DNA of 64,000 bases from a bacterium (GTDB taxonomy: Bacteria; Fidelibacterota; Fidelibacteria; Fidelibacterales; Fidelibacteraceae): positions 2,208,001 to 2,272,000 of the forward strand of contig OY781066.1 of assembly GCA_963676395.1 (NCBI GenBank), read 5' to 3'. The position numbers were made by a program, and so were the translations under genes. The stretch's first letter is position 1. Every line of letters begins with the position of its first letter. This document shows, in pieces, positions 20,283 to 43,056 of this stretch. The notes beneath the pieces are model-generated. The model worked only from the letters and a program-made list of their open reading frames with translations. It was not told the origin of the DNA and ran no database searches.

Positions 20283-20660
20283 TTGTGTCGTTTCAATTAC
20301 AATGTGAAAAGTAATGATTTATTGAGGGGTTTCAAATACAAATCGGCGTAAAAGTAAGGAGTAAGGAGACTTAATTGTTAATTACAGTACATTAATTGAA
20401 TAAAAAATACTTTTGATATTCATATTTAGATTGTAAAATAGGCTATCGAATAAATTATTATGTATATACAGGCGAAAATCTGTAGCTGAAAGAATGTTTT
20501 TGGGATTATGTGTTGAATGCTGACAATCAGAAACTTACATCGCTCATTTGGTGGCAGAAAAGTAATTTCAGGGCTTGATATAGACTTGGAACCAGAAAAA
20601 TCAAATTCAATGGTGAGCGTTGATAGTGAATATTAAAACGATTAAAATACGTGGTTATAT

Positions 20661-21515: not shown

Positions 21516-21615
21516 CTAAGTAATTTGCTATCAATTATGGGTGTTTTTATAATTAGAACTAAATTTGGAATAAATATATTTTAGGAAAATATAATAAATA
21601 GGTATATAATTAATC

Positions 21616-22563: not shown

Positions 22564-22579
22564 AGAAGCGAGGAGAATT

Positions 22580-24169: not shown

Positions 24170-25029
24170 TGAAACGTTATAATCTAATATACCGCATTCT
24201 TTTCCTTTTATTGACGGTCTTGGTGATTCCTTTGTTACCAATCATTATTATCTTTTTAGGAACAAATTCTCCCGAATATGTGATCAAGGGAACCTTGAAT
24301 ATGAGTGTTTCGCCGGGAGTATCTCCTTGGAATCTGTATTTGGAAGCATTGAAAAACCTTCTTACATTCAATTTGGGGACATCCATTTCTTCCGGCCAAT
24401 CAGTTATAAATGAAATAGGTGCGGGATTGGGTCAATCTTTTAAGATTATTATACCGGCGCTGGTATTGAGCTACCTTCTGGGAACATTGATTGGTATTTT
24501 GAGAAAAGGTAAAAGCCCAATTACAGGAAAGCGGTATGATTTTATCTTTTACATTCCGATGATCGTTTTCTCCTATTTCTTTCTGTTCTTATCCGACAAA
24601 TTGGGAATTGATTTTACGTCCGGTATAAGATATGTGTATGCGGTTATTATCTTATCGATTTATCCGGTTTTTATCGTTTATAAATCATTTATTTCCCGAT
24701 ACCATACGATCATTGAAAGTGATTTTTACCAATTTCATTTGTCCACGGGTGTAGGTAAATCTAATATTTTTAAAAATTTTCTTGTAAAATATTTCGGAAT
24801 CGAATACCTTTCATTCTTAGAAAATCTTGTTATATATATGTTCGGGTTTATTTATTTTGTTGAATCCCCCTTTGCTATTAATGGTATGGGCTATAAATTT
24901 GTTTTGGGCATTCAACGATTTGATTACCCGCTGATCATTGGCTTCTGTATTGTGAGTATTATTTTTTTTTCTGTGATCAATATTATTATTGGATATATTC
25001 AATCAAAAATCGATCCTAGAAGGACATGA
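24169..25029 (+). CDS. ABC permease, divergent OppB-like
   Basis: Hydrophobic; NLGTS, VESPFAINGMG, DYPLIIG. Confidence 0.8.
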   Translation: MKRYNLIYRILFLLLTVLVIPLLPIIIIFLGTNSPEYVIKGTLNMSVSPGVSPWNLYLEALKNLLTFNLGTSISSGQSVINEIGAGLGQSFKIIIPALVLSYLLGTLIGILRKGKSPITGKRYDFIFYIPMIVFSYFFLFLSDKLGIDFTSGIRYVYAVIILSIYPVFIVYKSFISRYHTIIESDFYQFHLSTGVGKSNIFKNFLVKYFGIEYLSFLENLVIYMFGFIYFVESPFAINGMGYKFVLGIQRFDYPLIIGFCIVSIIFFSVINIIIGYIQSKIDPRRT

Positions 25030-25802
25030 AAATTAAAAAACAGACATGGCTTTTATCCTTTCTATTGATAATCATCATTATTATTACTTGCCATAATATT
25101 TTTCTTTCACCTTCTAAACAAACAACGTTATTAATATCTCCCAACTGGAATCATTGGTTTGGGACGGATATTAACGGAAATGATGTTTTTATAAGGACGT
25201 TGGGAGCATTTGGGTATGAACTGCTTAATTTGGTAAGTGTTCTTTTCCTTGTATGGATTTTGGGACTATTATTGGGAAGTTTGGTATCCCAGATCGGAGG
25301 TCAGGCTTTTAAAGCTTTTTTCTTGAATCTTGTTCATTACATGGCCACATTACCCGTATTACTGATTGCATTATTTTTGCTGATACTTTTTGGAGGTGGC
25401 TTTTTTAATGCTGTTATTATTCTTTCAATTACGATTATTCCGACACAAATACTTTTTGTGTACAATCAACTGGAAACAGCTCAAAATGAAAGCTTTGTTG
25501 TTGCTAAAAAGAGCTATGGATTATCTAATACCGCAATTTATAAATCTCATTTAATTCCTTTTATTTTAAAAAAATATAATAGTTATACTTTATCCCGCAT
25601 CCCAGAAATCATTATGATGAATCTCGCTTTAAATTTTTTAGGATTAGGGATTCAAGAACCTCATCCAAGTTTAGGACGGATGCTATTTGATGGTTTGTCT
25701 TTTATGTTTTCTGCGTGGTGGTTGTGGATATCTCCCGTTATATTAATATTTTTATTATTCCTGATTGTAATTAGTATTAATCATGGTAAAGCTTATGATT
25801 GA
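25026..25802 (+). CDS. ABC permease, OppC-like
   Basis: HWFGTDINGNDV, EAA-like FVVAKKSYGLS, LNFLGLG..PSLG. Confidence 0.85.
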   Translation: MKIKKQTWLLSFLLIIIIIITCHNIFLSPSKQTTLLISPNWNHWFGTDINGNDVFIRTLGAFGYELLNLVSVLFLVWILGLLLGSLVSQIGGQAFKAFFLNLVHYMATLPVLLIALFLLILFGGGFFNAVIILSITIIPTQILFVYNQLETAQNESFVVAKKSYGLSNTAIYKSHLIPFILKKYNSYTLSRIPEIIMMNLALNFLGLGIQEPHPSLGRMLFDGLSFMFSAWWLWISPVILIFLLFLIVISINHGKAYD

Positions 25803-26781
25803 CATTACATCTATTCAAAATAAATTGTTAAATGATATTAAATCCTCCTATGGAAAAAATAAATTAATACCATTTACAGGTGCAGGTTTTTCTAAAAATA
25901 TTATAGGTTATCCAAGCTGGAAAGAATTTATCGAAATAATATCTGATGATATCTCAGGAAACATAGAACATATTAAAGAGATGTTTGATAATAATTATCT
26001 TCAATCTATAGAATATTATATGATGAGTTTTCTTATAAATGAAAATCTTGCGGACGACCCAAAAAGTAAAGATCTTGGAAAAGAACAACTTTCAAAAAAA
26101 TTGAAAGAGATTTTTTGTAAAGAATTTGACCAGTCAACATGGGAAGCACAAATAGCTTTAATCAGTTTAAAGAATTTTGATTTAATATATACTACAAATT
26201 GGGATAATACCTTGGAAATTACTTGCAGGGAAATACTTGGTGAAGATAGATATAGGGTGTACTATAGAGCTTCACAATTAGAAAATATTAAAGAGGACTA
26301 TTGCAACATATTAGAACATAAAAAAGAAAATAGAAAAAAACTGATAATAAAATTACATGGTGATATTAAAGATTATGATTCAATAGTAGCATCAGAAGAT
26401 GCTTATTATAGTAGAATGAATTCATTTAATGCTTTCGATATTGTATTTCAAAATGATATACTTTTGAATGATTTTTTATTTATGGGGTTTAGTTTTGACG
26501 ATGCCAATATTAATTATTTACTTCAACAAATTCGATCTATGAAGAAAGAAATTAAACCTTCCAATAACAAAGTATATCTTATATCAATTAAAAAACCAGA
26601 TATCGCATATTATAAACTATATGAGAAATATAAAAACGTAGATGTATATTATTTGTTTAATAATATGCTAGAATATGAAATGTATGATAAATCTTGTGAT
26701 GAAGAAAAGAATAGAATAATAAAAAATAAAACAATAGAATTCTTCGATTATATTTCAGATGGAGAATTAAAAGAAAAGTAA
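25795..26781 (+). CDS. Stand-alone SIR2-like (SIR2_2) protein
   Basis: PFTGAGFS..YPSW, YTTNWD, IKLHGD, FMGFSFDD. Start may be 25783 or 25795. Confidence 0.85.
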   Translation: MIDITSIQNKLLNDIKSSYGKNKLIPFTGAGFSKNIIGYPSWKEFIEIISDDISGNIEHIKEMFDNNYLQSIEYYMMSFLINENLADDPKSKDLGKEQLSKKLKEIFCKEFDQSTWEAQIALISLKNFDLIYTTNWDNTLEITCREILGEDRYRVYYRASQLENIKEDYCNILEHKKENRKKLIIKLHGDIKDYDSIVASEDAYYSRMNSFNAFDIVFQNDILLNDFLFMGFSFDDANINYLLQQIRSMKKEIKPSNNKVYLISIKKPDIAYYKLYEKYKNVDVYYLFNNMLEYEMYDKSCDEEKNRIIKNKTIEFFDYISDGELKEK

Positions 26782-26805
26782 ACTAATGTATTAAGAGGTA
26801 TTCAG

Positions 26806-27861
26806 ATGGCTATAGGATTTTCAGGTAGTAATGGAGGTATTACAAATATATACAATCAATATCTTAATAAAATATGCACATCAAAACAATCGCTCGAAGT
26901 CTCATATTTTATTAACAATCGTTGTAACTTAAATTGTAAACACTGTTATGTCGGATATTATGATTCCTCAAAAAATCTTCAGATAGATGAATGGAGTAAA
27001 ACATTTGACAGCCTCATAAAAATGGGTGCTAAAACATTTGGAAATGTTGGGAAAGAGCCTTTACTGGATTGGGATAGTACAAAAATGTTGCTTCAATATT
27101 TTAAAGCCAAGAGAGATGAAGACAAAACTATACGTTTTGGGTTTGTCAGTAATGGATTGCTTCTAAATGAAGAAATTATTCAAGAATTGACCCAAATAGA
27201 GCCTGATTATATAGATATCAGTCTTGATGGCGACCAACATAGTCATGATTCTATCCGGGGAGAGGGTACTTATCAAAAACTTCTAACCAATCTTACTCTA
27301 TTGGCAGAAACGAACTTGGCAAAAAAGGTATTTATCAGTTTTACATTGAATAATATCAATAAACATTCATTGCCGGAAGTTATTAAAACCATTTATCAAA
27401 TCGGCTTGAAAAATTTGTTGATTTCACCTTATGTCACATTGAATAAAAAAGATCTGCTGTATCTATCAGATGTCGAAATTGCCGATATTATTTCCGATAT
27501 TCTGCATGAGAATACAATATCATTTAAAAATTATGAACATTTGAATATCTACGTAAAAAGTGATTATTCTTCTTCAAAGGGAGTCATGGAGAAATTTAAA
27601 GACAGAGGTATTATAAATAAAAATGATTTATTAGTAGATAATTATGGTGTTGTTTTTAATAAATATCAATTTGGTACAAATCATATTTATTTCAATTATT
27701 TACCTTATGACAATACCTTCACACAAGCCATTAGGATCAGTCATGACGGTTATGTAAGCGGTTGTCTTGAAATGTTCCATGAAGATTATCCTGAACGGGC
27801 TATTGGGAATATCAGGGAAATGGATATTTCAAAAATATTGGCAAATTATAATAAAAATTAA
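26806..27861 (+). CDS. Radical SAM enzyme of unknown function
   Basis: CNLNCKHC, GKEPLL, ISLDG..HDSIRG.G, C-terminal DGYVSGC..IGNI. Confidence 0.88.
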   Translation: MAIGFSGSNGGITNIYNQYLNKICTSKQSLEVSYFINNRCNLNCKHCYVGYYDSSKNLQIDEWSKTFDSLIKMGAKTFGNVGKEPLLDWDSTKMLLQYFKAKRDEDKTIRFGFVSNGLLLNEEIIQELTQIEPDYIDISLDGDQHSHDSIRGEGTYQKLLTNLTLLAETNLAKKVFISFTLNNINKHSLPEVIKTIYQIGLKNLLISPYVTLNKKDLLYLSDVEIADIISDILHENTISFKNYEHLNIYVKSDYSSSKGVMEKFKDRGIINKNDLLVDNYGVVFNKYQFGTNHIYFNYLPYDNTFTQAIRISHDGYVSGCLEMFHEDYPERAIGNIREMDISKILANYNKN

Positions 27862-30214: not shown

Positions 30215-30670
30215 ATGCTACGTATCAGAAACCTATATCATTCGTTTGGAGACAGGAAAATAATCAACGGACTTGACCTTGATCTGGAACCTCAAAAGAT
30301 ATATTGTCTAATGGGAGCAAATGGATCTGGTAAAACGACATTATTCAATATTATTACCGGATTTCTTAAAGCAAAAAGTGGCGATATAACATATAAAGAT
30401 CAATCCATATTTAATAAATCTCCCGTTAAAATTAATCATTTAGGTATAAGTCGAACTTTTCAAGATCTCCGTATGATCCGGGAATTAACGGTAAGAGAAA
30501 ATGTTATGCTTGCCTTTAAGGGTAATAAAGGAGAGAATATATTTCAAGCTATGTTACCCCCTCCATTATTAAAACACCAGAATGATGAGTTTAATTCAAG
30601 AGCAGAAGAAATTATTGAACGTGTATTTCTTAGCGATGTTATTGATCAAAACCCTGATGTATTCCGATAA
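30215..30670 (+). pseudogene. Truncated branched-chain amino acid-type ABC ATPase (LivG-like)
   Basis: GANGSGKTT, GISRTFQDLR; ends before the signature and Walker B motifs; no partner genes. Confidence 0.75.
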
Positions 30671-31576
30671 TAAATACGGGGGAGAGACCTATAAGCTCGT
30701 ATTTGAGCCTCAGGATACGCTGTATCGCAGGCATACACATGGTATTTTTACTTATGACAAGAATGCCGAACTGCGCGAAGAGCAAGGTTATTTGAACGAA
30801 AAGACCATTGCGAAAACATCAATTCTTTGGTTTCGCAATTACTTTGATGAAAAGGGTGATACGCTAAAGGCGATCAAGAAGACCGATCCGGACTCCGATT
30901 TTGGCTCTCGTGTAGAATACCAGAAACATTATTACAAAGATGGCGAGGTTGTAGAGGTCGAAGAGATCTATACCGAGGCCCATAACAAAGAAGTGGGACT
31001 CGTCAAACATAGCGTTATTGCGAATCCCGAGAAAGACGGAACCATTGTCACTTATCAATACAATAACGAAAAGATCGAAAAAGATGCCATTCTTAGTCAT
31101 GAGATCCATTATAATCATTACATCGAACCCGTTAAAGAGGTCATGTATCCGACATCACGGGTCAAGAATTACCTAAATCTCCAAATATTGATCATCGACC
31201 ATCACCCGGACGGCGCTCAGAGCATCATTGCTCATTACAAAGAGAACGACGCCCCCCACTCCGGAAGTCAAACTCCACGAGATCAAAGATGCTCCCAATG
31301 GCGACCAGCTGGTCGAATCCACATCTATTTCGATGGCGAACTCTACTACCGCATCAACTTAAGCGGTTACATCGCCCAGTATGCCACCCCCGACTACCGC
31401 TTTAAAACCTACCTCACCGCCTTCAAACGCGACAGCAGCATCGACCACGTCGAAAGACAGACGACAAAAACAAACACGATTATACCCTCAAGGTCACGGA
31501 ATTTTACCAAGGCCAGCAGTACCGTGATCTGTACTACAGAGACGGTAAGGTAGAGAAGACGGAATATTATGAGTAG
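30647..31576 (+). pseudogene. 5'-truncated, frameshifted Tyr-rich beta-repeat (MORN-variant-like) protein fragment
   Basis: Higher-GC segment joined to the LivG fragment. An alternative frame gives DDKNKHDYTLKVTEFYQGQQYRDLYYRDGKVEKTEYYE-stop at 31576. Confidence 0.55.
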
Positions 31577-31907: not shown

Positions 31908-33182
31908 ATGGATGCATTAATTGATATTACAACTATTCATCGAATTGGTAAGATTATTTATTCTAAAGAAAATGAACGTGTTAGAGCAATTGATATTGTT
32001 GCATTATTGCATTTTGTTGAGCTAATATTATTTTGTGATAACATATATTTTACACAAATTGAAGGTGAAAAAACAGTTCCTCTTACTAGTAAAATAATTG
32101 AATCGTTAATGAAATATGGATGTATTCCAAAAGATAATTTTAATTCTTGTATGTTAAAACCAATAAAATCGAAATATGACGATCATTATGATTTTCATGT
32201 AGTCGCGGCAAATAAATGTGCAAATATATTGTATACATTAAAGAATGACAATTTGTTTAAGCAACTACCTAAGTATTTTGATTGTGCTTCTCAACCAGAT
32301 GGAGTTAGAATAGACAATATATATAAATTATTAGAATCAAAAGACATTCACGAACCCATTTCTAATGAGTTTTTGTTAGAATTAATTAAGGATGATTTTG
32401 TATTGGGTTCCACAAAATCAATTCTTTTTAGTAGTCGAGAATTGCAATTACAGCTAAAACAATTATATAAAAAACCAAATTTTCAATATGATTATTTATT
32501 TAGAACAATGTTTAGGATTAAAGCTAATGAGGCTATAGCAAATAAGTTTAATTGCATTTATTCACCGGCACCGCAAAGAGCTATATTTGATCAAATAATC
32601 TACAGATCTATATTATCAGATATGAATAAATCAATTTTATCGATCAGAAATGAATTGGGCTTGCGTAAGTATTTTGATGGAGTTTTTAAAAAATATGTTA
32701 TAAGCGAGGAATATCCATTTCCTGCTCTTGTGATTGGTATTTTATTAGAGAATAAATTAAATGAACCTATAGAAATGTTGCAATGGGCTTGTAAATATCG
32801 TGAGGAAAGCAATGAATTAAACAATATACGAATGTATATAAATGAACTAGAGCGTTTAAATATGACTGGAAATTATTCTGATCAAAAAAACGTTAAAGAT
32901 AATATTAAAAATGTGATATATGAAGTAAGACAAAATTTAGATAATAATTTTGTTAAATCAATATTTAGATCATCTCTAAAAAATTTCTTAAGTTTGATTA
33001 ATGTTAACAATGATGGCAATATGACAGATGAAGAAATTGATAATTATTTAAGGTTATTTCGCTCAAAAAAATATGAAAAGATATTACCAACAAATTTTTT
33101 ATCAATTATTACTAATAACTTATTATCTGAGTCAGAATTAGGAGCATGGCTTTCAAGCTCCTTAAAAAGAGAAATATATTAG
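31908..33182 (+). CDS. Hypothetical 424-aa protein, first gene of the caspase operon
   Basis: Long ORF in very AT-rich DNA; AGGAAG RBS; no family recognised. Confidence 0.75.
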   Translation: MDALIDITTIHRIGKIIYSKENERVRAIDIVALLHFVELILFCDNIYFTQIEGEKTVPLTSKIIESLMKYGCIPKDNFNSCMLKPIKSKYDDHYDFHVVAANKCANILYTLKNDNLFKQLPKYFDCASQPDGVRIDNIYKLLESKDIHEPISNEFLLELIKDDFVLGSTKSILFSSRELQLQLKQLYKKPNFQYDYLFRTMFRIKANEAIANKFNCIYSPAPQRAIFDQIIYRSILSDMNKSILSIRNELGLRKYFDGVFKKYVISEEYPFPALVIGILLENKLNEPIEMLQWACKYREESNELNNIRMYINELERLNMTGNYSDQKNVKDNIKNVIYEVRQNLDNNFVKSIFRSSLKNFLSLINVNNDGNMTDEEIDNYLRLFRSKKYEKILPTNFLSIITNNLLSESELGAWLSSSLKREIY

Positions 33183-33229
33183 TAAAATATTATTAATATT
33201 ATTTGGAAAAATTAGATAAAGAGGTCAAA

Positions 33230-33595
33230 ATGAGAAAATTAAAATTTATAATTGATTTGGGTGATTTAGGTAACGATATCGATCCATATGAATTTCAACA
33301 GTTTTTAAAACAATCTAATTATTTGACAACTTGTAAATATTGTCATATTGACAATAAAGATGAAAACGATTTGAGAAGTAAAGATCTTTCGTTGGCAATA
33401 GAAATAACCCTATATGTGATGCCTGTAGTAGAAGGTTCTATTGATTTGATTCAGGAACTTGATGTTAATACATTTATAGATCTACTATTAAAATTAAAAG
33501 GGATTAAAGAGGGACTTGATTTTGTTAAAAATTGTATAGTTGAAGTTAAAGACAAAAATAATGGTAAAATTAGATATGTTGATAAAAAAAAATAA
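33230..33595 (+). CDS. Small protein overlapping the caspase gene, possibly EACC1-like
   Basis: GAGG RBS then ATG 33230; central hydrophobic stretch; C-terminal IVEVKDKNNGKIRYV hairpin-like pattern. Confidence 0.55.
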   Translation: MRKLKFIIDLGDLGNDIDPYEFQQFLKQSNYLTTCKYCHIDNKDENDLRSKDLSLAIEITLYVMPVVEGSIDLIQELDVNTFIDLLLKLKGIKEGLDFVKNCIVEVKDKNNGKIRYVDKKK

Positions 33596-35378
33596 GGTAA
33601 AAGATTATGCATTTGTGTATGGAGTGAATGGTCATGAATTAAAATTTTCTGAAATAGATGCATATGATTTTGGAAAATTTTTGATGACTAAAAAATACCT
33701 TAATTATCAGGTGAAGTTTGGTGATAATTGCTATAAAAATGATTATGGTTTTCTATCACAATTCGAAGAAAGGATAAAAGATCTAGAACCTAATTCAAGG
33801 CTTTTATTTTATTTTTCTGGTCATGGTGTTTTTGAAGGAGATCCAAAACAATTTAGTTTTGAAATTGGGAGAGATGAATTTTGTTCATTTAATAGTTTGA
33901 TAAAATCAATTAAAAAATCTGAGGGTGCTTTACAAGAAATATTATTTATTTTTGATTGTTGTCATGCACATGTTATTAAACATGAAATTGAACATTTAAA
34001 TATTATAGATAGTAATAAAGCAAGAATAACTGGTGTGGATTATCAAAAGAGATATCATATACTACTTCCTACAAATTACATTAAAACAGAAACATATGAA
34101 GCATTAATAGATTCCGATAGTTCTTTTACTAAAAATATATCAAAAACAATTGATAAAATAGCTGTTGATTTTTTAAATAAAACTGGGAAAATTACAATCA
34201 AGGATATTAAAGATGCTTACCCTAATCAAAATGATCTTACTAATAGCCCTACCATTCTTGATAGCTTGAATGATGATTTTGTAATCGGTAAAATCGGAGA
34301 ACGGAAATTTGATAAAACATATATTGGTGATAGGGCTTCTCAAATAAACGAATATCTTAATGCATTCAGTGTTGCAGATAATGTTTCTAAAAAATGGACA
34401 GTTAAAGTTCCTTATGGTCCTCATAGTATAATTAAACTTCAAGGACGTTTGTCTAAAATTATAAAAGAACAAGATGAAGAATTTGAAGAATTTGATAAAA
34501 AAGCGGAAAGGAAATATTTTGATGCTATTCAAAATCCTGAATTAGCGCTAGTCAGTAACGCAATATATACATTTCCGTTTTTTATGACTCCATCAAGATT
34601 ACCGTTTTGGGGGGTAATTCCTTATGGGTATCATTTGGCACTAGGAATTTTATATAAAAAAGGCAAAAATAACATTAAATCATTTTCAGAAGAATATTTT
34701 AATAGAGAAATTGTGTTGAGATACAAATATGAACCTAGTAGTAGAGAACAAAAAGAATACAGTGCAATTAAAGATTATCATTGGATCAATGAACTTATTA
34801 ATGGAATTATAGTAAGTGATGTTAAAGGAAAGATTTATTCTAATTCTGGTTATATGTATAGTGAATTAATTCCTCTATTAATTAATTCTTCCCAGGTTGA
34901 TTTTACGCTTGAAAAATTAAATGAATATTTATATGTCATACCAGTTTCTTCAGAGCGAGTAAATAATTATATTTACCCTAAAGAATGTTTGTTAAAAAAA
35001 CATGCAATTGAAAATATTATTGTAGATTATATGGAGGGTAGAGAAAGAAATATTACCCCAACTATTAATGATATCACAATTTTTGATCTTGCACATAAAA
35101 AAAACTTAATTGAAGTACTTAAGCGCAGAGGACTAGAAGAAAGTTATGGATTAATTAGCATGTATCATAATCTCAATATACCGGTTGGTATTGGATTTAG
35201 TTTGAAATCATACAAACTGTTTCAAGATAATAGAAATTTGTGGTCAATGTTGGAAAATGAAGTTAGGGAGTTTTTTATAGAGGCACCTAATAATTGCAAA
35301 TATAATAAGCAAAGAAAAAGAAGAATATTATCGGAATTAAATGATATTGGTATTAAAATAAATTTAAATAACCATTAG
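33576..35378 (+). CDS. Caspase-like (peptidase C14) protease with a C-terminal putative solute-binding domain
   Basis: YAFVYGVN..L....DA, FYFSGHG (33816), IFDCCHA (33954). C-terminal half resembles the adjacent SBP. Confidence 0.82.
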   Translation: MLIKKNKVKDYAFVYGVNGHELKFSEIDAYDFGKFLMTKKYLNYQVKFGDNCYKNDYGFLSQFEERIKDLEPNSRLLFYFSGHGVFEGDPKQFSFEIGRDEFCSFNSLIKSIKKSEGALQEILFIFDCCHAHVIKHEIEHLNIIDSNKARITGVDYQKRYHILLPTNYIKTETYEALIDSDSSFTKNISKTIDKIAVDFLNKTGKITIKDIKDAYPNQNDLTNSPTILDSLNDDFVIGKIGERKFDKTYIGDRASQINEYLNAFSVADNVSKKWTVKVPYGPHSIIKLQGRLSKIIKEQDEEFEEFDKKAERKYFDAIQNPELALVSNAIYTFPFFMTPSRLPFWGVIPYGYHLALGILYKKGKNNIKSFSEEYFNREIVLRYKYEPSSREQKEYSAIKDYHWINELINGIIVSDVKGKIYSNSGYMYSELIPLLINSSQVDFTLEKLNEYLYVIPVSSERVNNYIYPKECLLKKHAIENIIVDYMEGRERNITPTINDITIFDLAHKKNLIEVLKRRGLEESYGLISMYHNLNIPVGIGFSLKSYKLFQDNRNLWSMLENEVREFFIEAPNNCKYNKQRKRRILSELNDIGIKINLNNH

Positions 35379-35395
35379 CTGTAGGAGAATTAAAT

Positions 35396-36328
35396 ATGGT
35401 TGAGTTAAAAGAAAATCTTAAAAATAATCGTATGATGAGAAATGGTCGTTTTGCTATAGTATTCTCAATAATAGCCTTTTTTATAAGTTTATTATCAATA
35501 TTAGCTTTTACTCCTAATAATAAAATATCAGATAAAAATAATTATATCGGTGTATTTCAAGAAATTAAGAAACACAAAGTATTAAAAATTGGATACGGAG
35601 GTTTCCCTCCATATACAATAGTAAATCCAAATGTTAAAAATTCTGAGGATGAAGTAACCGGGTATTCTATAGATTTAATTAAGGAGATTGCTTCACTAGC
35701 ACAACCGGAGTTGGAAATCGAATGGGTAAGATTTAGTTGGGAAACTATTCAAACTGAGTTGAATTCCGGGAAATTTGATATAATAGCAGATCCAGTATAC
35801 CAAACTATTCCTAGAGCATTTGAATTCGATTTTACAATGCCTTATGCGTATTTTGGTATTGCTGTAGGTGTGGTAAACAAAGATGATGATAGATTTAATA
35901 CATTTTCAGACTTAGATAGAGATGATATAATAATTTCACTTGCAAAAGGTTGGACAACATCTGAGTATGCTGAAAAATATCTTGATAAACCAAAATTTCA
36001 TTTTATTTCTGCAACGGGTGATGCTTTTAATCAGCTTGATGATGTGATTCTAGGGAGAGCTGATGTTGCATTAAATGATGTACCTACAGTTGTACAATAT
36101 GTAAATGCCCATTCTGATGTAGTCAAAAGCGTTTTTATAGAGAATCCACCTTCTAGCGTACCCGGCGGTTTTGTAGTAAGAAAAGGAGAAGTTGATTTAT
36201 TAAACTTTTTGAACACTTCACTATATATACTTATGGCTAATGGTACACTTGAGAGACTAGATGAAAAATGGGAAACATACCACCATATACCAATCAATAC
36301 TAAAGTACCTGGCAGTGGTATAAAATGA
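35396..36328 (+). CDS. Polar amino acid ABC substrate-binding protein (family 3)
   Basis: N-terminal TM anchor; LKIGY..FPPY, GYSIDL, W......LNSGKFDI, GRADV, GTLERL.EKW. Confidence 0.9.
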   Translation: MVELKENLKNNRMMRNGRFAIVFSIIAFFISLLSILAFTPNNKISDKNNYIGVFQEIKKHKVLKIGYGGFPPYTIVNPNVKNSEDEVTGYSIDLIKEIASLAQPELEIEWVRFSWETIQTELNSGKFDIIADPVYQTIPRAFEFDFTMPYAYFGIAVGVVNKDDDRFNTFSDLDRDDIIISLAKGWTTSEYAEKYLDKPKFHFISATGDAFNQLDDVILGRADVALNDVPTVVQYVNAHSDVVKSVFIENPPSSVPGGFVVRKGEVDLLNFLNTSLYILMANGTLERLDEKWETYHHIPINTKVPGSGIK

Positions 36329-36340
36329 TCGGTTATATAT

Positions 36341-37015
36341 ATGCTAAATTATAATTGGGACTTTTCTTTTCTTCTCAGCTATAGAGATGCTTTCTTAAAT
36401 GGTATAGTGGTAACACTTTATGTCTCGCTTATGTCGTTTATAATTGGTACTATTGTTGGCATATTATTTGGTATGTTGATTAAATATATCAAACGGAATT
36501 ATATATTATTATTAATTAATGATGCAATTCGTGCTATACCAATGTTAGTTATGATATTTTTTGTATATTATTTTCCTTTCAAAGCATTATTGGGAATTAA
36601 TCCTCCTAATGCCTTGTATTCCTCAATTATAGCAATTAGTATAAGTCAGGCAGCTTATACCGCTGATATTGTTAGATCGGCAATAAATTCAGTATCATCC
36701 AAAACCATTCAAGGAGCCAAAGCATTAGGTCTGAAAGAAGTTGTTGTTCTTAGATATATAATTCTTCCCGATATAATTAGGCAAACGTTACCTGCGCAAA
36801 TAGCCTTTCTAATTGGCATTTTTAGATTGTCAAGTTTGGCATCAGTTATTGGTGCAAATGAAATCGTATTTGTAGCTCGTACAGCAATATCACAAAATTA
36901 TCGTTCTTTGGAGGCATGGATTGTTGTTGCAATAATTTATATTATATTAATATTGCCTTTAACATTCCTAAGTAGACGCTTAGAAAATTCAAAATGGTTA
37001 AAACGAAGATGGTAA
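36341..37015 (+). CDS. Polar amino acid ABC permease (HisM/GlnP-like)
   Basis: GIVVTL, RAIPMLV, AAYTADIVRSAI, GAKALGL, SSLASVIG. Confidence 0.92.
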   Translation: MLNYNWDFSFLLSYRDAFLNGIVVTLYVSLMSFIIGTIVGILFGMLIKYIKRNYILLLINDAIRAIPMLVMIFFVYYFPFKALLGINPPNALYSSIIAISISQAAYTADIVRSAINSVSSKTIQGAKALGLKEVVVLRYIILPDIIRQTLPAQIAFLIGIFRLSSLASVIGANEIVFVARTAISQNYRSLEAWIVVAIIYIILILPLTFLSRRLENSKWLKRRW

Positions 37016-37773
37016 ATAAAGAATTAATTTTAAAATGTAAGGATATTCAACATTCTTTTGGCTCGAATAAAGTTTTAAACTCATTAAACTTGGAATTGGT
37101 TAAAGGAGAAATAAAAGCAATTATTGGTGCTAGCGGTTGTGGAAAAACAACTCTATTAAAAAATATTAACTTGCTAATACCACCACAAAAGGGTGAATTG
37201 CAGTTATCAAAACAAGTTTATTTTAATAATGGTGAAATAATTTATGAACCATATGAATTATGTAGAAGTATTGGATTGGTTTTTCAGGATTTTAATTTAT
37301 TCCCGAATTTAACATGTCTAAATAACATTACTTTAGCTTTGATAAAGAATTTAGGATTTACAAAAGAAAATGCAACAGAAACATCCCTAAGAATTGCTGA
37401 AAAATTACATATACAAGATGTGCTTAAAAAGTATCCTGGGGATTTAAGTGGAGGTCAGGCTCAAAGGTTAAGCATTGCAAGAGCAATAGTACTGAAACCT
37501 AAAATATTATTGTTAGATGAGATTACTTCTGCTTTAGATCCTAATACTACACAAAATGTTATTGATGCAATAAAAGATGTTAAACTATTACTTCCAGAAT
37601 TATCAATAATTATTGTAACTCATCATATACAATTTGCTGAAAGATTTGCTGATAATATTGCATTTATGTTCGATGGTAGAATTATTGAAGAACTACCTGC
37701 GAGAGAATTTAGTACGAATTGTAAGAATTCTAAAACGCAAGAATTCGTTAAAGTGGTCGCAGGAATTCATTAA
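36994..37773 (+). CDS. Polar amino acid ABC ATPase (GlnQ-like)
   Basis: GASGCGKTT, VFQDFNLFP, LSGGQAQR, LLDEITSALDP, VTH. Start may be 37009. Confidence 0.92.
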   Translation: MVKTKMVNKELILKCKDIQHSFGSNKVLNSLNLELVKGEIKAIIGASGCGKTTLLKNINLLIPPQKGELQLSKQVYFNNGEIIYEPYELCRSIGLVFQDFNLFPNLTCLNNITLALIKNLGFTKENATETSLRIAEKLHIQDVLKKYPGDLSGGQAQRLSIARAIVLKPKILLLDEITSALDPNTTQNVIDAIKDVKLLLPELSIIIVTHHIQFAERFADNIAFMFDGRIIEELPAREFSTNCKNSKTQEFVKVVAGIH

Positions 37774-37777
37774 AAAT

Positions 37778-38800
37778 ATGTTTATTAAAATTAATAATTG
37801 TGAATTGCCTATAATTGAGAGTTTTATTGCTGATAATTCCAATAATATTTATTGTCATAATGTTTCAAGTGATGTTAGGCAAAGTAAATATTTTGATTTT
37901 ATGTGTTTTTATCTGTTTTTTATAGAATATGAGAAGAACAATATTGAAAGATATAAGGCAATACTGAAATTACTTGATACTTGCACTATTGGAAAATTTA
38001 TAGCGGGATTTCTTCAGAACATTCCAAACAATAAATTAAAAAACTATTTATCAGTTTGGCCCCAGACCAATATAGCCATTGCAGAATCTCAATTGATTAA
38101 AAATGTTTTCAAAGGAATTTTAGATGAATTTGGGAATGTCAGATATAGTCTGACAGATATTGGTACAGGAGATGGAGTGCTTTTAAAGGAAATTATTGAT
38201 ATGTTTTATGAAAAAGGCTATCCATATCTTAAAGTTACCGCAATAGATCAAAATAAAGATTTATTATCTCTTGCTATGAATGAAATCCTTAATTATAAGT
38301 CTAGTTTAAATGATTTGAATATAGTGCATGGAAACATGTTTGAAATAAAGTACGAAAAATATTTTAATAATGATGATATTAAAATAATCAATGCTTCATC
38401 GGTTCTCCATGAATTACCGAGAAGGGATAAGATTACTATGCTCGAAAAACTTAAAAAATATTCTGATATTATTGTTATATGTGAGCTTGAAAGTAATCAT
38501 GATATTGAATGTGTTGCTTGTATTCCTTTATTGTTGTCAACATATAATTTTTATAGTGCTTTAATTCATGATACTTTGGAATCTGACATAGATAGAGGTA
38601 TGTCAAAAAATTATATACTAAATTATCTCATTAAAGAACTTTTCGATATAAATACTAAGCCTTATCAAGATAGAGTTAACTATCATATGACAAAAAATCA
38701 ATGGTTAGATATATTTAGAATATGTGAATTTGATGTTAAAATACATGAAAAATCAATTTCGAATGATAAACCAAAAATTAATGTTTTCGTACTGAGGTGA
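37778..38800 (+). CDS. Class I SAM-dependent methyltransferase, GRAS-domain-like
   Basis: DIGTGDG, LKVTAID, INASSVLHEL, ICELESNHD, FYSALIHDTL, DRVNYH...QW...F in GRAS order. ATG 37778 lies 4 bp after the ATPase stop. Confidence 0.72.
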   Translation: MFIKINNCELPIIESFIADNSNNIYCHNVSSDVRQSKYFDFMCFYLFFIEYEKNNIERYKAILKLLDTCTIGKFIAGFLQNIPNNKLKNYLSVWPQTNIAIAESQLIKNVFKGILDEFGNVRYSLTDIGTGDGVLLKEIIDMFYEKGYPYLKVTAIDQNKDLLSLAMNEILNYKSSLNDLNIVHGNMFEIKYEKYFNNDDIKIINASSVLHELPRRDKITMLEKLKKYSDIIVICELESNHDIECVACIPLLLSTYNFYSALIHDTLESDIDRGMSKNYILNYLIKELFDINTKPYQDRVNYHMTKNQWLDIFRICEFDVKIHEKSISNDKPKINVFVLR

Positions 38801-38802
38801 AA

Positions 38803-39555
38803 ATGGTAAGAAAGATTATTTGTTTAATTATTATGCAAATATTCGTTATAAATATTTTGTTTGCTCAAGTTAATGAGTCTTCTACAGAAATAAGTAATAA
38901 TAGCTTTCAATTTGGTGTTTCAAATTATACGGTTTCAAAATATATTCCACGATCTGGCACTCAAGTCGGGCTTGGATCGGCAAATCAAACTTTAGGTTAT
39001 TTATCATATAAAAACCTAACCATATATTTTTGGATGAATTATGGATTCCCGGATGAAACGATAACTGAATTTGATTATGGAATTGAGTACAAACATAATC
39101 TTTATTCAGATACTCATTTAGGTGAAATCAGTATAGTGGGTGGTGCACACAAGTATATTTTTCCTGTAGCCCAATTGAACAACTTTATATTAGAAGGAAA
39201 AATACTTTATAATGGTATTTTAAAAACAGATATTCTCTATACGCATTGTTTTAGAAGTAATAACGTTGATTCAGGAAGTAGAATTTATATTGAATTGCGA
39301 AAACCAGTAATATTATTTGATAAATCATTTCAAATTCAATTAATTCCATTAATGTCAAGTGCATATCATTGGGGTTTTTATGGTTGGGAAAAGTGGGGGC
39401 AATTAACTGCTGGAATCAAGTCAAAGTTTGTTTTCGATAATATCTCTATAATTGCATACGCAAATTATCAATATAGTTCAGATGATATTAGTATAGGGCA
39501 TGTAACTGAAAAGTTATTCCCATATTTTGGAATTGGAATAGAATATAATAAATAA
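38803..39555 (+). CDS. Outer-membrane beta-barrel, TorF/Gcw_chp-like putative porin
   Basis: Signal peptide; SKYIPRSG and TEFDYGIEY patterns; C-terminal YFGIGIEY beta-signal-like strand. Confidence 0.6.
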   Translation: MVRKIICLIIMQIFVINILFAQVNESSTEISNNSFQFGVSNYTVSKYIPRSGTQVGLGSANQTLGYLSYKNLTIYFWMNYGFPDETITEFDYGIEYKHNLYSDTHLGEISIVGGAHKYIFPVAQLNNFILEGKILYNGILKTDILYTHCFRSNNVDSGSRIYIELRKPVILFDKSFQIQLIPLMSSAYHWGFYGWEKWGQLTAGIKSKFVFDNISIIAYANYQYSSDDISIGHVTEKLFPYFGIGIEYNK

Positions 39556-39583
39556 CTTGGGAACAAAACGATAAGGATAAAAA

Positions 39584-40363
39584 ATGGAAACAAAATATAA
39601 AATACATATTGGATATATATTTGCTATTCTCTTAGCAGTAATAGTTTATTTATCTGTTAAAGATTTTTCAAGTAATCCTGAATTAGTTGATTATATTTCA
39701 TTTGCGTCAACTGTCGCATCTTTAATTCTTGCTCTATTAGCAATTATTTATTCTTTTGTTTCGAATAATGCACTTTCGAAAAATATCGGAATTATTAATG
39801 AAGCAACAACAAATTTAAAAGAGAATTCTGATAGTCTAGATAGAGTATCAAAAGTTATTATTCATGAAATTCCTAATGCGATAAAAGAAATGGATCAAAA
39901 ACTAGATAGTACGCAAAACCTTGTCAATAATTTAGGATTAAATGATGAAAATGATAAGATTTCTCCCCATAAAAATTCAACATCAAAACTTACTATGGTG
40001 CAAAAGTTTATAGATGTGTCATCATTAACAGGATTATTTTTGATTTATGCGGTGTTTTTAGCGAATTATAAAAGTTTACCATTAAATATTGAAGAAATAG
40101 CTGTTGAGATTGGTCAGAGTAACGACGAATATGTATGGGGGTATTTTGTTGCATCTTCTTCCGCGGGGTTATTTGATTTTAATGCTAAGGATAAAGTATG
40201 TAACATTAAAACTATCCATTCTGAAATTAAAAAAGATGACCTAATTGAAAAAATTTCACTTAGAGGAAAAGAAATAGAAAGAAAAATTAAAGCGGATAAT
40301 CCCGATTCATCATATAGTTGGAAAAATAAATTTGAAGCAATTGAAAAGTATTTTGAAGATTGA
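39584..40363 (+). CDS. Membrane protein: 2 N-terminal TM helices, coiled coil, C-terminal domain
   Basis: Hydropathy pattern by eye; AAGGA RBS. Confidence 0.7.
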   Translation: METKYKIHIGYIFAILLAVIVYLSVKDFSSNPELVDYISFASTVASLILALLAIIYSFVSNNALSKNIGIINEATTNLKENSDSLDRVSKVIIHEIPNAIKEMDQKLDSTQNLVNNLGLNDENDKISPHKNSTSKLTMVQKFIDVSSLTGLFLIYAVFLANYKSLPLNIEEIAVEIGQSNDEYVWGYFVASSSAGLFDFNAKDKVCNIKTIHSEIKKDDLIEKISLRGKEIERKIKADNPDSSYSWKNKFEAIEKYFED

Positions 40364-40388: not shown

Positions 40389-40420
40389 AAAAAGGCTCCA
40401 AACTCTGGAGCCTCTTCGTT
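40389..40420. terminator. Rho-independent terminator between convergent genes
   Basis: aaaa-aggctcca-aactc-tggagcct-cttc. Confidence 0.7.
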
Positions 40421-40500
40421 TTAAATATGATTTTTTATTTTACTTCATTCTGTAAGCATTATCCTCTACTTCACTCCTTCGGAGCTTCGAAGTGCAAGCC

Positions 40501-43056
40501 CTATCTTCTATAGTTATTATTAAGCAGCTCGTCAATTTTTACAAACTGATAATTTTTATCTGTCAGCTCAACCACCAATTCATCCAACTCATCATAAAAA
40601 TTCTCCGTCCTTTTTGGATCAGCACCAATATGCATGAGTAATATAAAGCCATTTAATCCATTGTTTTCTTCGTAGATCTTAATCGATTGGTAGATCTCGT
40701 CGTTGGCGTGGTAGCGTTTTCCTTGGTCGGGAGTGGTATAGTCGGTGTGGGAAAGGGTGCCGGGCGTATAGTTGATAAGGGTAAGTTCTTCCTGATAGGT
40801 CCAGAGGGCGATATCCTGGTTATACCATTCGTAGGGTGGTAAAAAGTAGTGGGCATCTTGCTTGTTGATGCCAAACTTTGCCATTTCGGCGTAGTTGGCG
40901 GCAAGGTCGCTTTTGATTTTTTTTTCACTTACATTCAGGGTGCGGGCATTGTCCCATTTGTTGTAAAGCAAATGTTTGTTGCTGTGGGCGCCCATGTAAT
41001 GGCCATCGGCAACAAGTTGTTCGATCACATCCTTGAATTCCGGATTGCGGTAAAAATCGCCGGTAAAGAAGAAAGAAGCCTTGACATTATGGGCTTTGAG
41101 GGTGTCGGCAATGATCTTGCCGCCGTCGGCAAATTCGTGACCTGTAAACACGAGCGCGATCTTCTTTTCGTCGGTGGCGCCTCGGACGATCGCTCCGTGG
41201 GCATCGGTTTTGTTTTTACTGATCTTTGATCCATTATCCAATGAAGATAGGTAGTAGATCAAACAAGCGGTTCCATCCATGGTGGGTTCGTTAGTACTGT
41301 AGTCACCGGCATCATCGTGATACACGGCCACATCGCTTTGGAATTCGGCATATTCGTCTTCATCGAAGAGTTTAAGCCATTTGAGATTATTGTAAATGCT
41401 ACCATAAACCGGACCGTCAATGAGTCCGCCCGGAATGGTCATGTCGTATAAATGTGTTAACGACGAGTGTGGATCAACCGGTGTATCGGCGTTTACAGGC
41501 AAGCCGACGATCATACTCGTTCCCCAAATATTGCATCCAAAAAGCCAATCACGCAGCGCCGCTTCCATTTCATCGTATTTATGATCGTTCGATAATTTTT
41601 TATAAAGATCGATCTGGGATAGCGTTGCGGTAACAAAGTTATTCGAACACCAAACAAAGGGGATACCGATCAAGAATGGATTGTCTTTACCACGTTCATA
41701 AATGTTGTTCAATCCGAAATCGTAATAATATTCCAGCTTTTCTTTTTCATGAAAACCCGGAGCTGAGGCGGCAGTATAGTGCCCCGCATTAAAGAAAGGA
41801 TACCATTGATAATGACGAGCCGTATCGGCACCCATCCAGGGTGTAACCGGTTCCAGGTCGGCATATTTAACCACTTCATTCTTGAAATATTTACGACCGG
41901 TCATGCGGTAAATTTCCGCAGCGGCCAGTTCCATATCATCTACCCAGTTGTCTTCTTCATAAAAATAGGGTGCGGTGCACGGAGCGGTCTGACAGGCACC
42001 GGGATACTGCTTACCAAAGGCATAGGCCAGTTGTGCGCGGAGTTTTAAGCTTTCGGCATAGCGGGGATAGAATGCTTTTAAAACGCCTGAGCCGGCGGCA
42101 AAAGCAGAGGAGAATTTACCTGCCGTACTGGCTGTTCCTGTGGTACGATTCTTGTTTTCGAATAGTCCTTGTACCTCGCCGGAGCAGAAATAAACAGGAC
42201 GACCTTCATATTCATCGGAATATTTGGTGGTATCTTCGGTGGGAAGCCTGAAACCCGCATGATCACGATCATCGGCGATCTGATTGAAAAAACGATCGGG
42301 AGCAGGATTCATGCGGCAGAGCCAATCCATGCCCCATTTGGCTTCGTCGATCACATCCGGAATACCGTTGGCACCGGGCAAGCCTTTTGCATTGTAGGCA
42401 TCACCAAAAGCGTCAGGGTGTTCACGGTAGGCAAGTAGCATTTGATAGACCGCATTGGCGGATGTTGCCGTATATTGCAGGTAATCGGAGGCATCGTGCC
42501 AACCGCCATGTACATTGATATATTCGCCTTCGTGACCTTTTTCGTAGACGATAAAACCATCGTTGGTGTGGCAACTGTCATTTAAATAAGGATTAAAACC
42601 ACAACGTTGCTGACGCATGTATCTAAGCAAGAAATCAGCCGTGCCGTCGTAAACATTCTCGGCAATACGAAAGGTGGGGGATTCTACGCCGCCGGCACGA
42701 ATAAAATAGTCGCCTTCACCGGTGAAATTCGTCAATTTAAAGCGCAGAGTATTCTTGAAAGGGCCGTATTCACCTACGGAATCAATGTCAGAACTCTCTA
42801 GAACGATTTCCTGAGTTTTGGCATTGATAAGCTGGAAACTTTTAGGGGAATTAACGCTATCTTTTGAACAATAAACCGGTACTTTGATATCATTGGGACG
42901 GTAACCGAGTTGGTTTACACGGATCCATGCGTTGACCGCTTGGGGAACTGTTTCGCTTTTTTTAAAGAGATTGCAGGAGCTGAGGACTAAGATTAAGATT
43001 AAGCCCAGTGCCAAGTAATAAGCTGCTTGCAAATTTCGAGAATGTTTTGTCTTCAT
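40501..43056 (-). CDS. GH9 glycoside hydrolase (N-terminal Ig-like) fused to a CE4/NodB polysaccharide deacetylase; lipoprotein
   Basis: LSSC lipobox, RVNQLGY, GGWHDASDY, DYSTNEPT; C-terminal GAHSNKH, FLPPYE, LLMH. Confidence 0.88.
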   Translation of the reverse strand: MKTKHSRNLQAAYYLALGLILILVLSSCNLFKKSETVPQAVNAWIRVNQLGYRPNDIKVPVYCSKDSVNSPKSFQLINAKTQEIVLESSDIDSVGEYGPFKNTLRFKLTNFTGEGDYFIRAGGVESPTFRIAENVYDGTADFLLRYMRQQRCGFNPYLNDSCHTNDGFIVYEKGHEGEYINVHGGWHDASDYLQYTATSANAVYQMLLAYREHPDAFGDAYNAKGLPGANGIPDVIDEAKWGMDWLCRMNPAPDRFFNQIADDRDHAGFRLPTEDTTKYSDEYEGRPVYFCSGEVQGLFENKNRTTGTASTAGKFSSAFAAGSGVLKAFYPRYAESLKLRAQLAYAFGKQYPGACQTAPCTAPYFYEEDNWVDDMELAAAEIYRMTGRKYFKNEVVKYADLEPVTPWMGADTARHYQWYPFFNAGHYTAASAPGFHEKEKLEYYYDFGLNNIYERGKDNPFLIGIPFVWCSNNFVTATLSQIDLYKKLSNDHKYDEMEAALRDWLFGCNIWGTSMIVGLPVNADTPVDPHSSLTHLYDMTIPGGLIDGPVYGSIYNNLKWLKLFDEDEYAEFQSDVAVYHDDAGDYSTNEPTMDGTACLIYYLSSLDNGSKISKNKTDAHGAIVRGATDEKKIALVFTGHEFADGGKIIADTLKAHNVKASFFFTGDFYRNPEFKDVIEQLVADGHYMGAHSNKHLLYNKWDNARTLNVSEKKIKSDLAANYAEMAKFGINKQDAHYFLPPYEWYNQDIALWTYQEELTLINYTPGTLSHTDYTTPDQGKRYHANDEIYQSIKIYEENNGLNGFILLMHIGADPKRTENFYDELDELVVELTDKNYQFVKIDELLNNNYRR

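Follow-up and report, generated by a model that had tools for sequence, protein, structure and literature searches.

The window analysed here, a stretch of 64,000 nucleotides from a bacterium of the Fidelibacteraceae (assembly GCA_963676395.1, contig OY781066.1, positions 2,208,001 to 2,272,000), carries a block of nine AT-rich genes, g1 to g9, within which g3 to g7 belong to a cassette that recurs in other genomes. By its sequence, the conserved unit consists of an effector-sensor protein, a binding protein of the SBP_bac_3 family, a permease, an ATPase and an S-adenosylmethionine (SAM) methyltransferase. What stays constant in the first gene product is its C-terminal domain of about 300 amino acids (aa), which we call Cdom, and not the caspase-like domain that precedes it in the window; among homologues the N-terminal head is exchanged for a caspase, a patatin, a single transmembrane (TM) helix, a ribbon-helix-helix (RHH) or helix-turn-helix (HTH) domain, or domains that we could not assign. 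Cdom is predicted to adopt the type II periplasmic-binding-protein (Venus-flytrap) fold, the fold class of the binding protein g4, and, as predicted from the protein sequences, it is cytoplasmic, unlike the exported g4. We propose that an imported amino-acid-like ligand, or a methylated form of it, gates these interchangeable death or regulatory outputs, a proposal whose chances we regard as evenly balanced.

The cassette in other genomes

Related loci were gathered with members of the cassette as bait. When one genome per species was scanned, a 10-row Cdom alignment gave three loci (L010, L011 and L012), and a metagenome scan with an alignment of the binding protein gave 26; most of the related loci are metagenome fragments. 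The binding-protein subfamily of g4 is present in 28 loci (L010, L011 and L013-L038), in which genes were counted by BLAST and iterated hidden Markov model (HMM) searches across all open reading frames (ORFs). After six near-duplicates were dropped (L014, L020, L025, L030 and L036, with identical BLAST statistics, and L038, with rows equal to those of L028), 22 loci were left, and 19 of these have room upstream of the binding protein. A Cdom gene stands directly upstream in 17 of the 19, a frequency that, like the others given here, is valid for this subfamily only. The exceptions are L032, which has a DNA methylase, a HATPase/Shedu-like protein and Vsr upstream, and L035, which has housekeeping genes. 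A methyltransferase gene lies past the ATPase gene in 11 of the 12 loci that are long enough, intact in ten and fragmentary in L017, with L035 again the exception. A reading of the window made earlier from sequence alone (the sequence-only reading) had proposed that a caspase protein, an importer and a methyltransferase belong together, and their linkage is indeed conserved in other genomes; the nine-gene unit that it had drawn has to be reduced to a core of five, since g1 and g2 have no homologue in any of the 28 loci, g8 is found in two, and g9 only in L017, where it is on the opposite strand.

One counterpart is L010, from a Balneola metagenome-assembled genome (MAG), in which a patatin-Cdom protein is followed by a binding protein, permease, ATPase and methyltransferase (57%, 58%, 51% and 29% identical to g4, g5, g6 and g7). 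In L011, from a Bacteroidetes MAG, the contig stops after a binding protein 63% identical to g4. Identity to the related loci as a whole is 42-70% for g4, 45-70% for g5 and 39-56% for g6. Homologues of g7 follow the ATPase in L010, L013, L016, L018, L021 and L034, and L017 has a fragment.

In a maximum-likelihood tree of the 22 binding proteins the window falls in a clade of six with support of 100/100. Two caspase and four patatin loci are intermixed in this clade, and the caspase locus L015 pairs with the patatin locus L011 (97/89); therefore the effector heads have been exchanged on a conserved cassette. The RHH loci form a separate clade (91/91). Over the whole tree the output classes require 10 changes, as against a mean of 15.3 when they are shuffled, a clustering that is inflated by related sequences. 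The distribution is sporadic: of the 401 genomes of its own phylum, this 1 alone was found to have Cdom. Searches of viral contigs gave no relative for either the binding protein or Cdom, and a tblastn search of plasmids with Cdom gave no match.

The effector-sensor protein

All nine gene products were scanned against Pfam, NCBIfam and PADLOC v2. The N-terminus of g3 matches Peptidase_C14 at 22.5 bits (cut-off 21.4) over profile positions 17-144 of 233, and the PADLOC caspase model at 3e-7; it is the sole C14 match in the genome. The His (SGHG) and Cys (DCCH) dyad is intact, as had been read from the sequence before, and it is kept as (S/A)GH(G/A) and DCC(H/N/D)A in the full-length homologues P0006-8, which score 29-49 bits against Peptidase_C14. 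A further homologue, in L015, is 38% identical over 559 aa. The N-terminus of g3 is thus predicted, from family and dyad, to be a caspase-like protease. In a model of full-length g3 the confidence was lower N-terminally, and its fold search was dominated by the C-terminal domain.

While a k-mer search with g3 gave almost no matches, an exhaustive HMMER search gave 69 proteins, of which three are full-length caspase homologues and most align solely to g3 residues ~290-580. The N-termini of 44 of the 69 were examined with Pfam: three are caspases, 13 are patatins with one further weak patatin, one is HTH_31, one is a weak RepB-type RHH and 25 have no family. Of 86 proteins examined with an HMM of Cdom, 81 are picked up and the other five are caspase-only matches. 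The heads in the neighbourhood loci include five patatins and one caspase, and RHH-like strand-helix-helix N-termini were read by eye in L017, L018 and L021. The caspase had been taken for the conserved partner of the importer, a place that now passes to the sensor domain. No hydrophobic segment or signal peptide is present in g3. Some other Cdom proteins have a single N-terminal TM helix with basic residues on its C-side, and because of these residues, by the positive-inside rule, Cdom of the TM forms is predicted to be cytoplasmic as well.

The fold of Cdom was modelled with AlphaFold2 from a 79-row alignment of the domain, giving a predicted local distance difference test (pLDDT) score of 85.7 and a predicted template-modelling score (pTM) of 0.87. 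The top Foldseek matches of this model in the PDB are amino-acid binding proteins (probability 0.99-1.0, E-values of 2e-4 and above), among them GlnH, GlnPQ-SBD1, ArgBP, ArtJ and NocT, and they span glutamine-, arginine-, histidine-, cysteine-, glutathione- and opine-binding proteins; one histidine-kinase sensor domain and ionotropic glutamate receptor (iGluR) ligand-binding cores were also matched. A VIA search, which is independent of Foldseek, gave Z-scores of 10.6-8.2 at a root-mean-square deviation of 3.7-5.6 Å, with alignments of ~200-235 residues to targets of roughly 210-290 residues. Binding proteins for amino acids or opines, ligand-binding domains of iGluRs and effector domains of LysR proteins make up most of the 50 VIA matches listed, alongside a few other proteins. 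The sequence-only reading had supposed that the caspase protein senses an amino-acid-like molecule, and this predicted fold lends that idea independent support, as does the retention of an Arg and an Asp in the binding protein g4 (below).

Several polar residues of Cdom are near-invariant, namely Y27 (74/76), R88 (75/79), E177 (70/79), D251 (77/79) and H278 (74/77), and so are P81, Y97, H100, Y173 and a GIG motif. In the model the first strand leads to Y27 and the second to R88, a second-lobe helix begins at Y173 and E177, and D251 is at a strand end. We take the Y, R, E and D sites to correspond in topology to the Tyr, Arg, Thr/Gln and Asp residues that contact the ligand in HisJ/LAO-type proteins. 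By strand and helix order, as distinct from superposition, the conserved residues may therefore lie at HisJ/LAO-like contact places.

The importer and the methyltransferase

The three genes that follow g3 match SBP_bac_3 (g4, 1.8e-24), BPD_transp_1 (g5, 2.2e-16) and ABC_tran (g6, 5e-31) in Pfam, in agreement with the earlier calls of binding protein, permease and ATPase. They are encoded together, in an order that is conserved across the related loci, and they match the NCBIfam models GlnP, GlnQ and EhuA-D below equivalog cut-offs; generic PADLOC ATPase models also match g6. By gene content g4-g6 are an ATP-binding cassette (ABC) importer of the polar amino acid transport (PAAT) type. A single N-terminal hydrophobic anchor is present in g4, whose closest solved relative is AncCDT-1, a binder of cationic amino acids (E 2.5e-33). 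The motifs TIPR and ND of the g4 family align with TPER and TD of AncCDT-1, so that Arg and Asp are retained; from HisJ/LAO-type structures we presume these residues to be the contacts for the alpha-carboxylate and alpha-amino groups of the ligand.

The product of g7 scores 26.9 bits against Methyltransf_31 (cut-off 27), its homologues score alike, and its translation shows a GxGxG-type motif, DIGTGDG. The methyltransferase had previously been called GRAS-like. It is a probable class I methyltransferase, and the GRAS resemblance is sub-threshold, at 19.3 bits for g7 and 22.1 bits for the L021 homologue against a Pfam cut-off of 27. Among solved structures g7 has a weak match to a plant O-methyltransferase (E 0.05), which is uninformative on substrate. 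Besides a g7-like family, the cassettes contain shorter methyltransferases of Methyltransf_25/11 type, which escape the g7 HMM.

Proposed mechanism and alternatives

A possible mode of action for the cassette is as follows. The importer g4-g6 would take a small amino-acid-like compound into the cell, where the methyltransferase g7 would convert it, either making or removing the active form. Cdom of g3 would bind one form of the ligand in the cytoplasm and switch the fused N-terminal output, which here would be the caspase-like protease; relatives would act through a patatin phospholipase, a helix in the membrane, or DNA binding by an RHH/HTH domain. The product of g8 could provide a route across the outer membrane, and g1, g2 and g9 would be local additions. 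We arrive at this reading because Cdom and g4 share a fold class and their genes are linked, because the RHH/HTH-Cdom forms make sense only with Cdom as a small-molecule sensor, and because the caspase, patatin, TM and DNA-binding repertoire parallels that of CARF and SAVED sensors. We infer from these relationships that Cdom binds the imported compound, and likewise the direction of gating, the part of the methyltransferase and the biological role. Since the outputs include caspases, patatins and TM helices and the neighbourhoods are mobile or defence-related, the role may be one in conflict, with the cassette as a ligand-gated switch for cell death or defence whose signal comes through an importer and not from an internal cyclase. 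If so, the caspase could cleave a partner, and signalling between cells and defence could be involved. The stronger proposal, that this is a new class of conflict system in which a dedicated importer brings in the activating molecule and a cytoplasmic Venus-flytrap receptor fires caspase, phospholipase or membrane effectors, is tentative, and we lean towards doubting it.

Several observations weigh against ligand gating or against a role in conflict. The Foldseek TM-scores of Cdom are moderate (0.24-0.56), an hhalign alignment of Cdom with the g4-family binding proteins gave a probability of 0.3 and no similarity, and a PDB profile search with Cdom gave nothing, so that there is no sequence likeness to binding proteins. 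The methyltransferases belong to at least two subfamilies. PADLOC v2 places no system model on the block, and the Cdom homologues match only its caspase and phospholipase effector models. A distant Phycisphaerales Cdom locus, L012, has neither an adjacent importer nor a binding protein of the g4 subfamily; conversely, L035 has a transporter 47% identical to that of the window amid housekeeping genes, with neither Cdom nor methyltransferase. The flanks of L010 and L011 are housekeeping genes, the RHH-Cdom loci L017, L018 and L021 look, from their predicted genes, like ordinary substrate-responsive regulators of uptake and modification, and the use of cassette members as bait bears on every frequency.

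Much of this would fit a metabolic or detoxifying uptake operon with no role in conflict, the main alternative, although we consider it rather unlikely. The importer would then take up an amino-acid-like compound or conjugate that the methyltransferase modifies, and the Cdom proteins would be substrate-responsive regulators (RHH/HTH) or hydrolases of acyl or peptidyl conjugates (patatin/caspase). The position of RHH-Cdom directly upstream of the importer and methyltransferase in three loci, the plain transporter of L035, the amino acids bound by the closest solved relatives of g4 and the lack of a PADLOC system match all agree with such an operon, and the binding-protein fold has turned catalytic elsewhere, as shown by cyclohexadienyl dehydratase entries among both the Cdom VIA matches and the g4 matches. 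A single substrate chemistry is hard to fit with the swap of caspase and patatin inside one tight transporter clade, however, and an uptake operon also leaves aside the single-TM and the many unassigned N-termini, the sporadic occurrence, the AT-rich strain-specific DNA and the frequent mobile or defence neighbours.

The ligand could instead be made by the cells themselves as a quorum or alarm signal, a methylated amino-acid-like product that leaves the cell, is re-imported (via g8 in diderms) and is sensed by Cdom. Peptide signals imported by the oligopeptide permease (Opp) and recognised by cytoplasmic receptors, as in RRNPP and arbitrium systems, offer an analogy. The methyltransferase is retained despite replacement of its subfamily, g8 follows it in three loci including the window, and the importer has no obvious nutritional context; even so we hold a self-made signal to be unlikely, as there is no exporter or signal-specific synthase besides one methyltransferase, the producer's own sensor would meet the product before export, and nothing separates this role of the methyltransferase from that of a sink. 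More improbable still is a guard or 'dead-man' switch, in which the imported ligand keeps the Cdom output off, the methyltransferase removes the ligand, and a drop in import, through energy loss or shut-off during infection, frees the effector. It would account for a source (the importer) and a sink (the methyltransferase) travelling with the sensor, but the RHH forms suit simple induction at least as well. Finally, both caspase conflict genes and nutritional transporters are common in islands and could stand side by side by chance, and peptide natural-product clusters also combine a protease, an ABC system and a methyltransferase. Either explanation would be very improbable indeed: chance adjacency was rejected on the linkage, which persists in 17 of the 19 non-redundant loci and spans distant lineages, together with the binding-protein tree, and a natural-product cluster was rejected because the transporter is a binding-protein-dependent importer and not an exporter, with no core biosynthetic enzyme or precursor in g1-g9.

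Comparison with known systems

CARF and SAVED sensors carry caspase, patatin, TM and DNA-binding outputs. In its fusion of a small-molecule sensor to swappable caspase, patatin, TM or HTH outputs the cassette resembles the cyclic-oligonucleotide-based anti-phage signalling system (CBASS), Pycsar, type III CRISPR and type IV Thoeris, and it shares with these systems the form of sporadic, mobile cassettes. It differs from CBASS, Thoeris and Pycsar in that no cyclase, TIR domain or nucleotide-signal synthase is found in g1-g9 or among the related loci that were scanned; the place of the signal generator is taken by an importer with a methyltransferase, and the predicted fold of Cdom is that of a type II binding protein and not CARF, SAVED or SLOG. 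One published account describes a CBASS patatin effector and a type IV Thoeris pair of a TIR protein and a caspase-like protease (PMC13069673).

The passage of an extracellular signal through an importer to a cytoplasmic receptor that controls an output is also seen in RRNPP and arbitrium systems. Those receptors are tetratricopeptide-repeat proteins that use the housekeeping Opp, whereas the cassette has a dedicated importer of amino-acid type, a predicted Venus-flytrap receptor and outputs that include death-type enzymes. PAAT importers such as GlnHPQ, HisJQMP and ArtPIQMJ share the families of g4-g6 and the aligned binding-site Arg and Asp, but g4-g6 reach no equivalog cut-off and are linked to Cdom and methyltransferase genes; with a neighbouring Opp-like system they are the genome's only two binding-protein-dependent importers, both in one island.

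LysR-type regulators likewise join a cytoplasmic sensor of binding-protein fold to an output; CatM and BenM match Cdom in the VIA search at Z 8.4-8.6, and RHH/HTH-Cdom forms exist. Cdom differs from them as a new sensor family with N-terminal outputs that comprise enzymes and TM helices besides DNA-binding domains. The best structural matches of all are the iGluR ligand-binding domains (Z 10.6-10.1), in which a clamshell gates another domain. Cdom, unlike these, has no channel and no sequence likeness to them and is predicted to be cytoplasmic and soluble, and the resemblance is one of fold and logic only. By analogy, then, the cassette would work like signal-activated effectors and import-dependent receptors, yet it belongs to none of these families. 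The claim that no described system combines these parts is upheld by PADLOC, Pfam and the literature searched, in which, with subscription journals and supplements outside its scope, no protein of caspase or patatin type is described as being coupled with an importer of the binding-protein kind. As for known defence systems, the PADLOC scan returned only generic models for the caspase (g3) and the ATPase (g6).

If ligand gating is correct, Cdom would represent a new sensor family of binding-protein fold, with no Pfam model and an output range like that of CARF and SAVED; its death effectors would be triggered by uptake from the environment and not by synthesis within an infected cell, and binding-protein-dependent importers could be dedicated components of mobile conflict cassettes. 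Ligands could be screened for with the exported binding protein as well as with the cytoplasmic sensor. Were the system also a new conflict class, it would be a bacterial counterpart of the reception of danger or kin signals, apart from cyclase and TIR signalling.

Organisation of the block

The features of the block are listed in Table 1. The arrangement seen by the sequence-only reading, nine co-oriented, tightly packed genes ending at a hairpin, was confirmed in its coordinates, and neighbouring genes overlap or stand no more than 47 bp apart. The GC content from 31908 to 40363 is 27.7%, against 38.1% for the genome (2.34 Mb, single contig), a value undercut by just 0.13% of the genome's 8-kb windows, and third-codon-position GC is 15-22% in each of the nine genes. 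Terminator-like sites occur at 3 per 10 kb where shuffled sequence leads one to expect 3.3, so it is the placement of the hairpin after g9 that is suggestive, and not its mere existence. An Rfam scan of window positions 19000-41000 gave no match.

Table 1. Coordinates of the block and of related features (window positions unless another contig or locus is named)
Feature	Position	Strand	Description
g1	31908-33182	+	424 aa, protein with no assigned function; lineage-specific accessory, outside the conserved core
g2	33203-33595	+	130 aa, or 121 aa from the ATG at 33230; orphan; overlaps the start of g3
g3	33576-35378	+	effector-sensor: N-terminal caspase-like domain and C-terminal Cdom
g3 ORF	33540-35378	+	612 aa; likely start 33561 or 33576
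Caspase (Peptidase_C14) core of g3	33633-34028	+	Pfam, aa 32-163 of the ORF from 33540; SGHG and DCCH
Cdom of g3	34380-35375	+	predicted model of type II binding-protein (Venus-flytrap) fold; cytoplasmic by sequence
g4	35396-36328	+	membrane-anchored SBP_bac_3 binding protein
g5	36341-37015	+	ABC importer permease, GlnP/EhuD-like; BPD_transp_1
g6	36994-37773	+	ABC ATPase; ABC_tran
g7	37778-38800	+	probable class I SAM methyltransferase of the long form; resembles GRAS weakly
g7 ORF	37634-38800	+	open from 37634; first ATG past the g6 stop is 37778
g8	38797-39555	+	secreted accessory protein, putative outer-membrane beta-barrel
g9	39584-40363	+	membrane protein, 2-3 hydrophobic helices; not conserved with the cassette
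Terminator-like hairpin	40393-40413	+	T-rich tail; 30 bp past g9
BPD_transp_1 permeases	24523-25778 and 36446-36985 (genome C1:2232523-2244985)		
L019 flanking blocks	L019:13460-16156 and L019:3-7277		

The C-terminus of g3 matched no Pfam family, SBP_bac_3 included, and an Atlas search with Cdom gave no usable match. The accessory genes are equally poor in relatives: g1, g2 and g8 have no family in Pfam, NCBIfam or PADLOC. Two homologues of g1, 50% and 46% identical, lie on short metagenome contigs; a scan of metagenome and genome contigs with the g1 alignment gave no confirmed relative, a PDB profile search gave nothing real, and Atlas gave unnamed clusters and a 16% lead to DUF6236. A search of 5.8 billion proteins with g2 matched only g2 itself. 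The product of g8, in which 16% of the residues are aromatic and segments alternate, starts with a signal-like sequence and is possibly a secreted outer-membrane beta-barrel; its homologues, 36-41% identical, stand directly after the methyltransferase in L013 and L016. In g9 two strong N-terminal hydrophobic helices are followed by a weaker third, and its NCBIfam match to SLATT_4 (16.5 bits) is far below the cut-off of 55. Its single homologue lies ~2.7 kb past the ATPase in L017.

Cdom proteins with a long unassigned N-terminus have conserved upstream genes of their own, which overlap their starts and fall into two families with no Pfam match (L019:7303-8124, L023:415-1224, L022:3782-4651 and L024:1738-2751; L029:2156-2920 and L038:2-457). 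They may encode partners specific to their class of Cdom protein, a part that g1 and g2 might play for the caspase form.

The island and its neighbours

The cassette lies in a variable, strain-specific hotspot of 20 kb, and it is mobile and rare. On the left, conservation of the flank reaches to about window position 20340, and from ~20340 to 40500 some 20 kb are strain-specific between the conserved flanks of same-genus relatives. In a search of 40 relatives the island DNA was not found and only the GH9 gene (40501-43056) was matched; at the hotspot, relative G003 (locus L006) has instead ~1.4 kb with a HigB/HigA-like toxin-antitoxin pair. The whole genome has just three BPD_transp_1 permease matches (Table 1), all in the two importers of the hotspot.

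Cassettes elsewhere also adjoin mobile or defence genes: a serine recombinase and AbiEi/AbiEii in L017, insertion sequence (IS) elements and AbiEii in L016, IS66 in L034, and a 1745-aa SNF2/ResIII protein in L021. In L019 the cassette is flanked by primase-like genes (PriCT_1, DUF3987) and a type ISP restriction-modification enzyme on one side and by a phage terminase and portal on the other, and it may ride on a prophage or satellite.

A second AT-rich block is present in the same hotspot at window positions 20661-27861. It contains an FRG protein matching the PADLOC candidate PDC-S15 (8e-53) and an Opp-like importer composed of one ATPase with oligo_HPY, SBP_bac_5 and two permeases, followed by a ThsA-like SIR2 protein (2e-22) and an enzyme of the radical SAM/SPASM group, whose viperin-like match is weak (3e-14). 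This block looks like a peptide-type parallel, in which an importer accompanies a death effector and a modifying enzyme; were the new conflict class real, the Opp-like importer with SIR2 and the viperin-like enzyme would be its second, peptide-based example.

The 5' end of a gene for an ABC/AAA_15/AAA_23-type ATPase is duplicated in the window (20517-20600 and 30215-30670), and in the first ~85 nt of coding sequence many aligned columns are identical. The second copy, a truncated ORF of 151 aa with GajA/PtuA/LmuB-like PADLOC matches, is overlapped by a family-less ORF of 323 aa (30582-31553). This copy could be what is left of a defence ATPase gene that was broken, and it may record successive insertions. 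Past the hairpin and before the GH9 gene, a stretch of ~36 nt (40464-40500) has copies with 84-93% identity on several contigs of the same-genus relatives G019, G011 and G006, and is probably a small dispersed repeat. Elsewhere in the genome, GC content falls below 30% in 8-kb windows at C1 84001-101000 and 713001-725000, which may be further islands.

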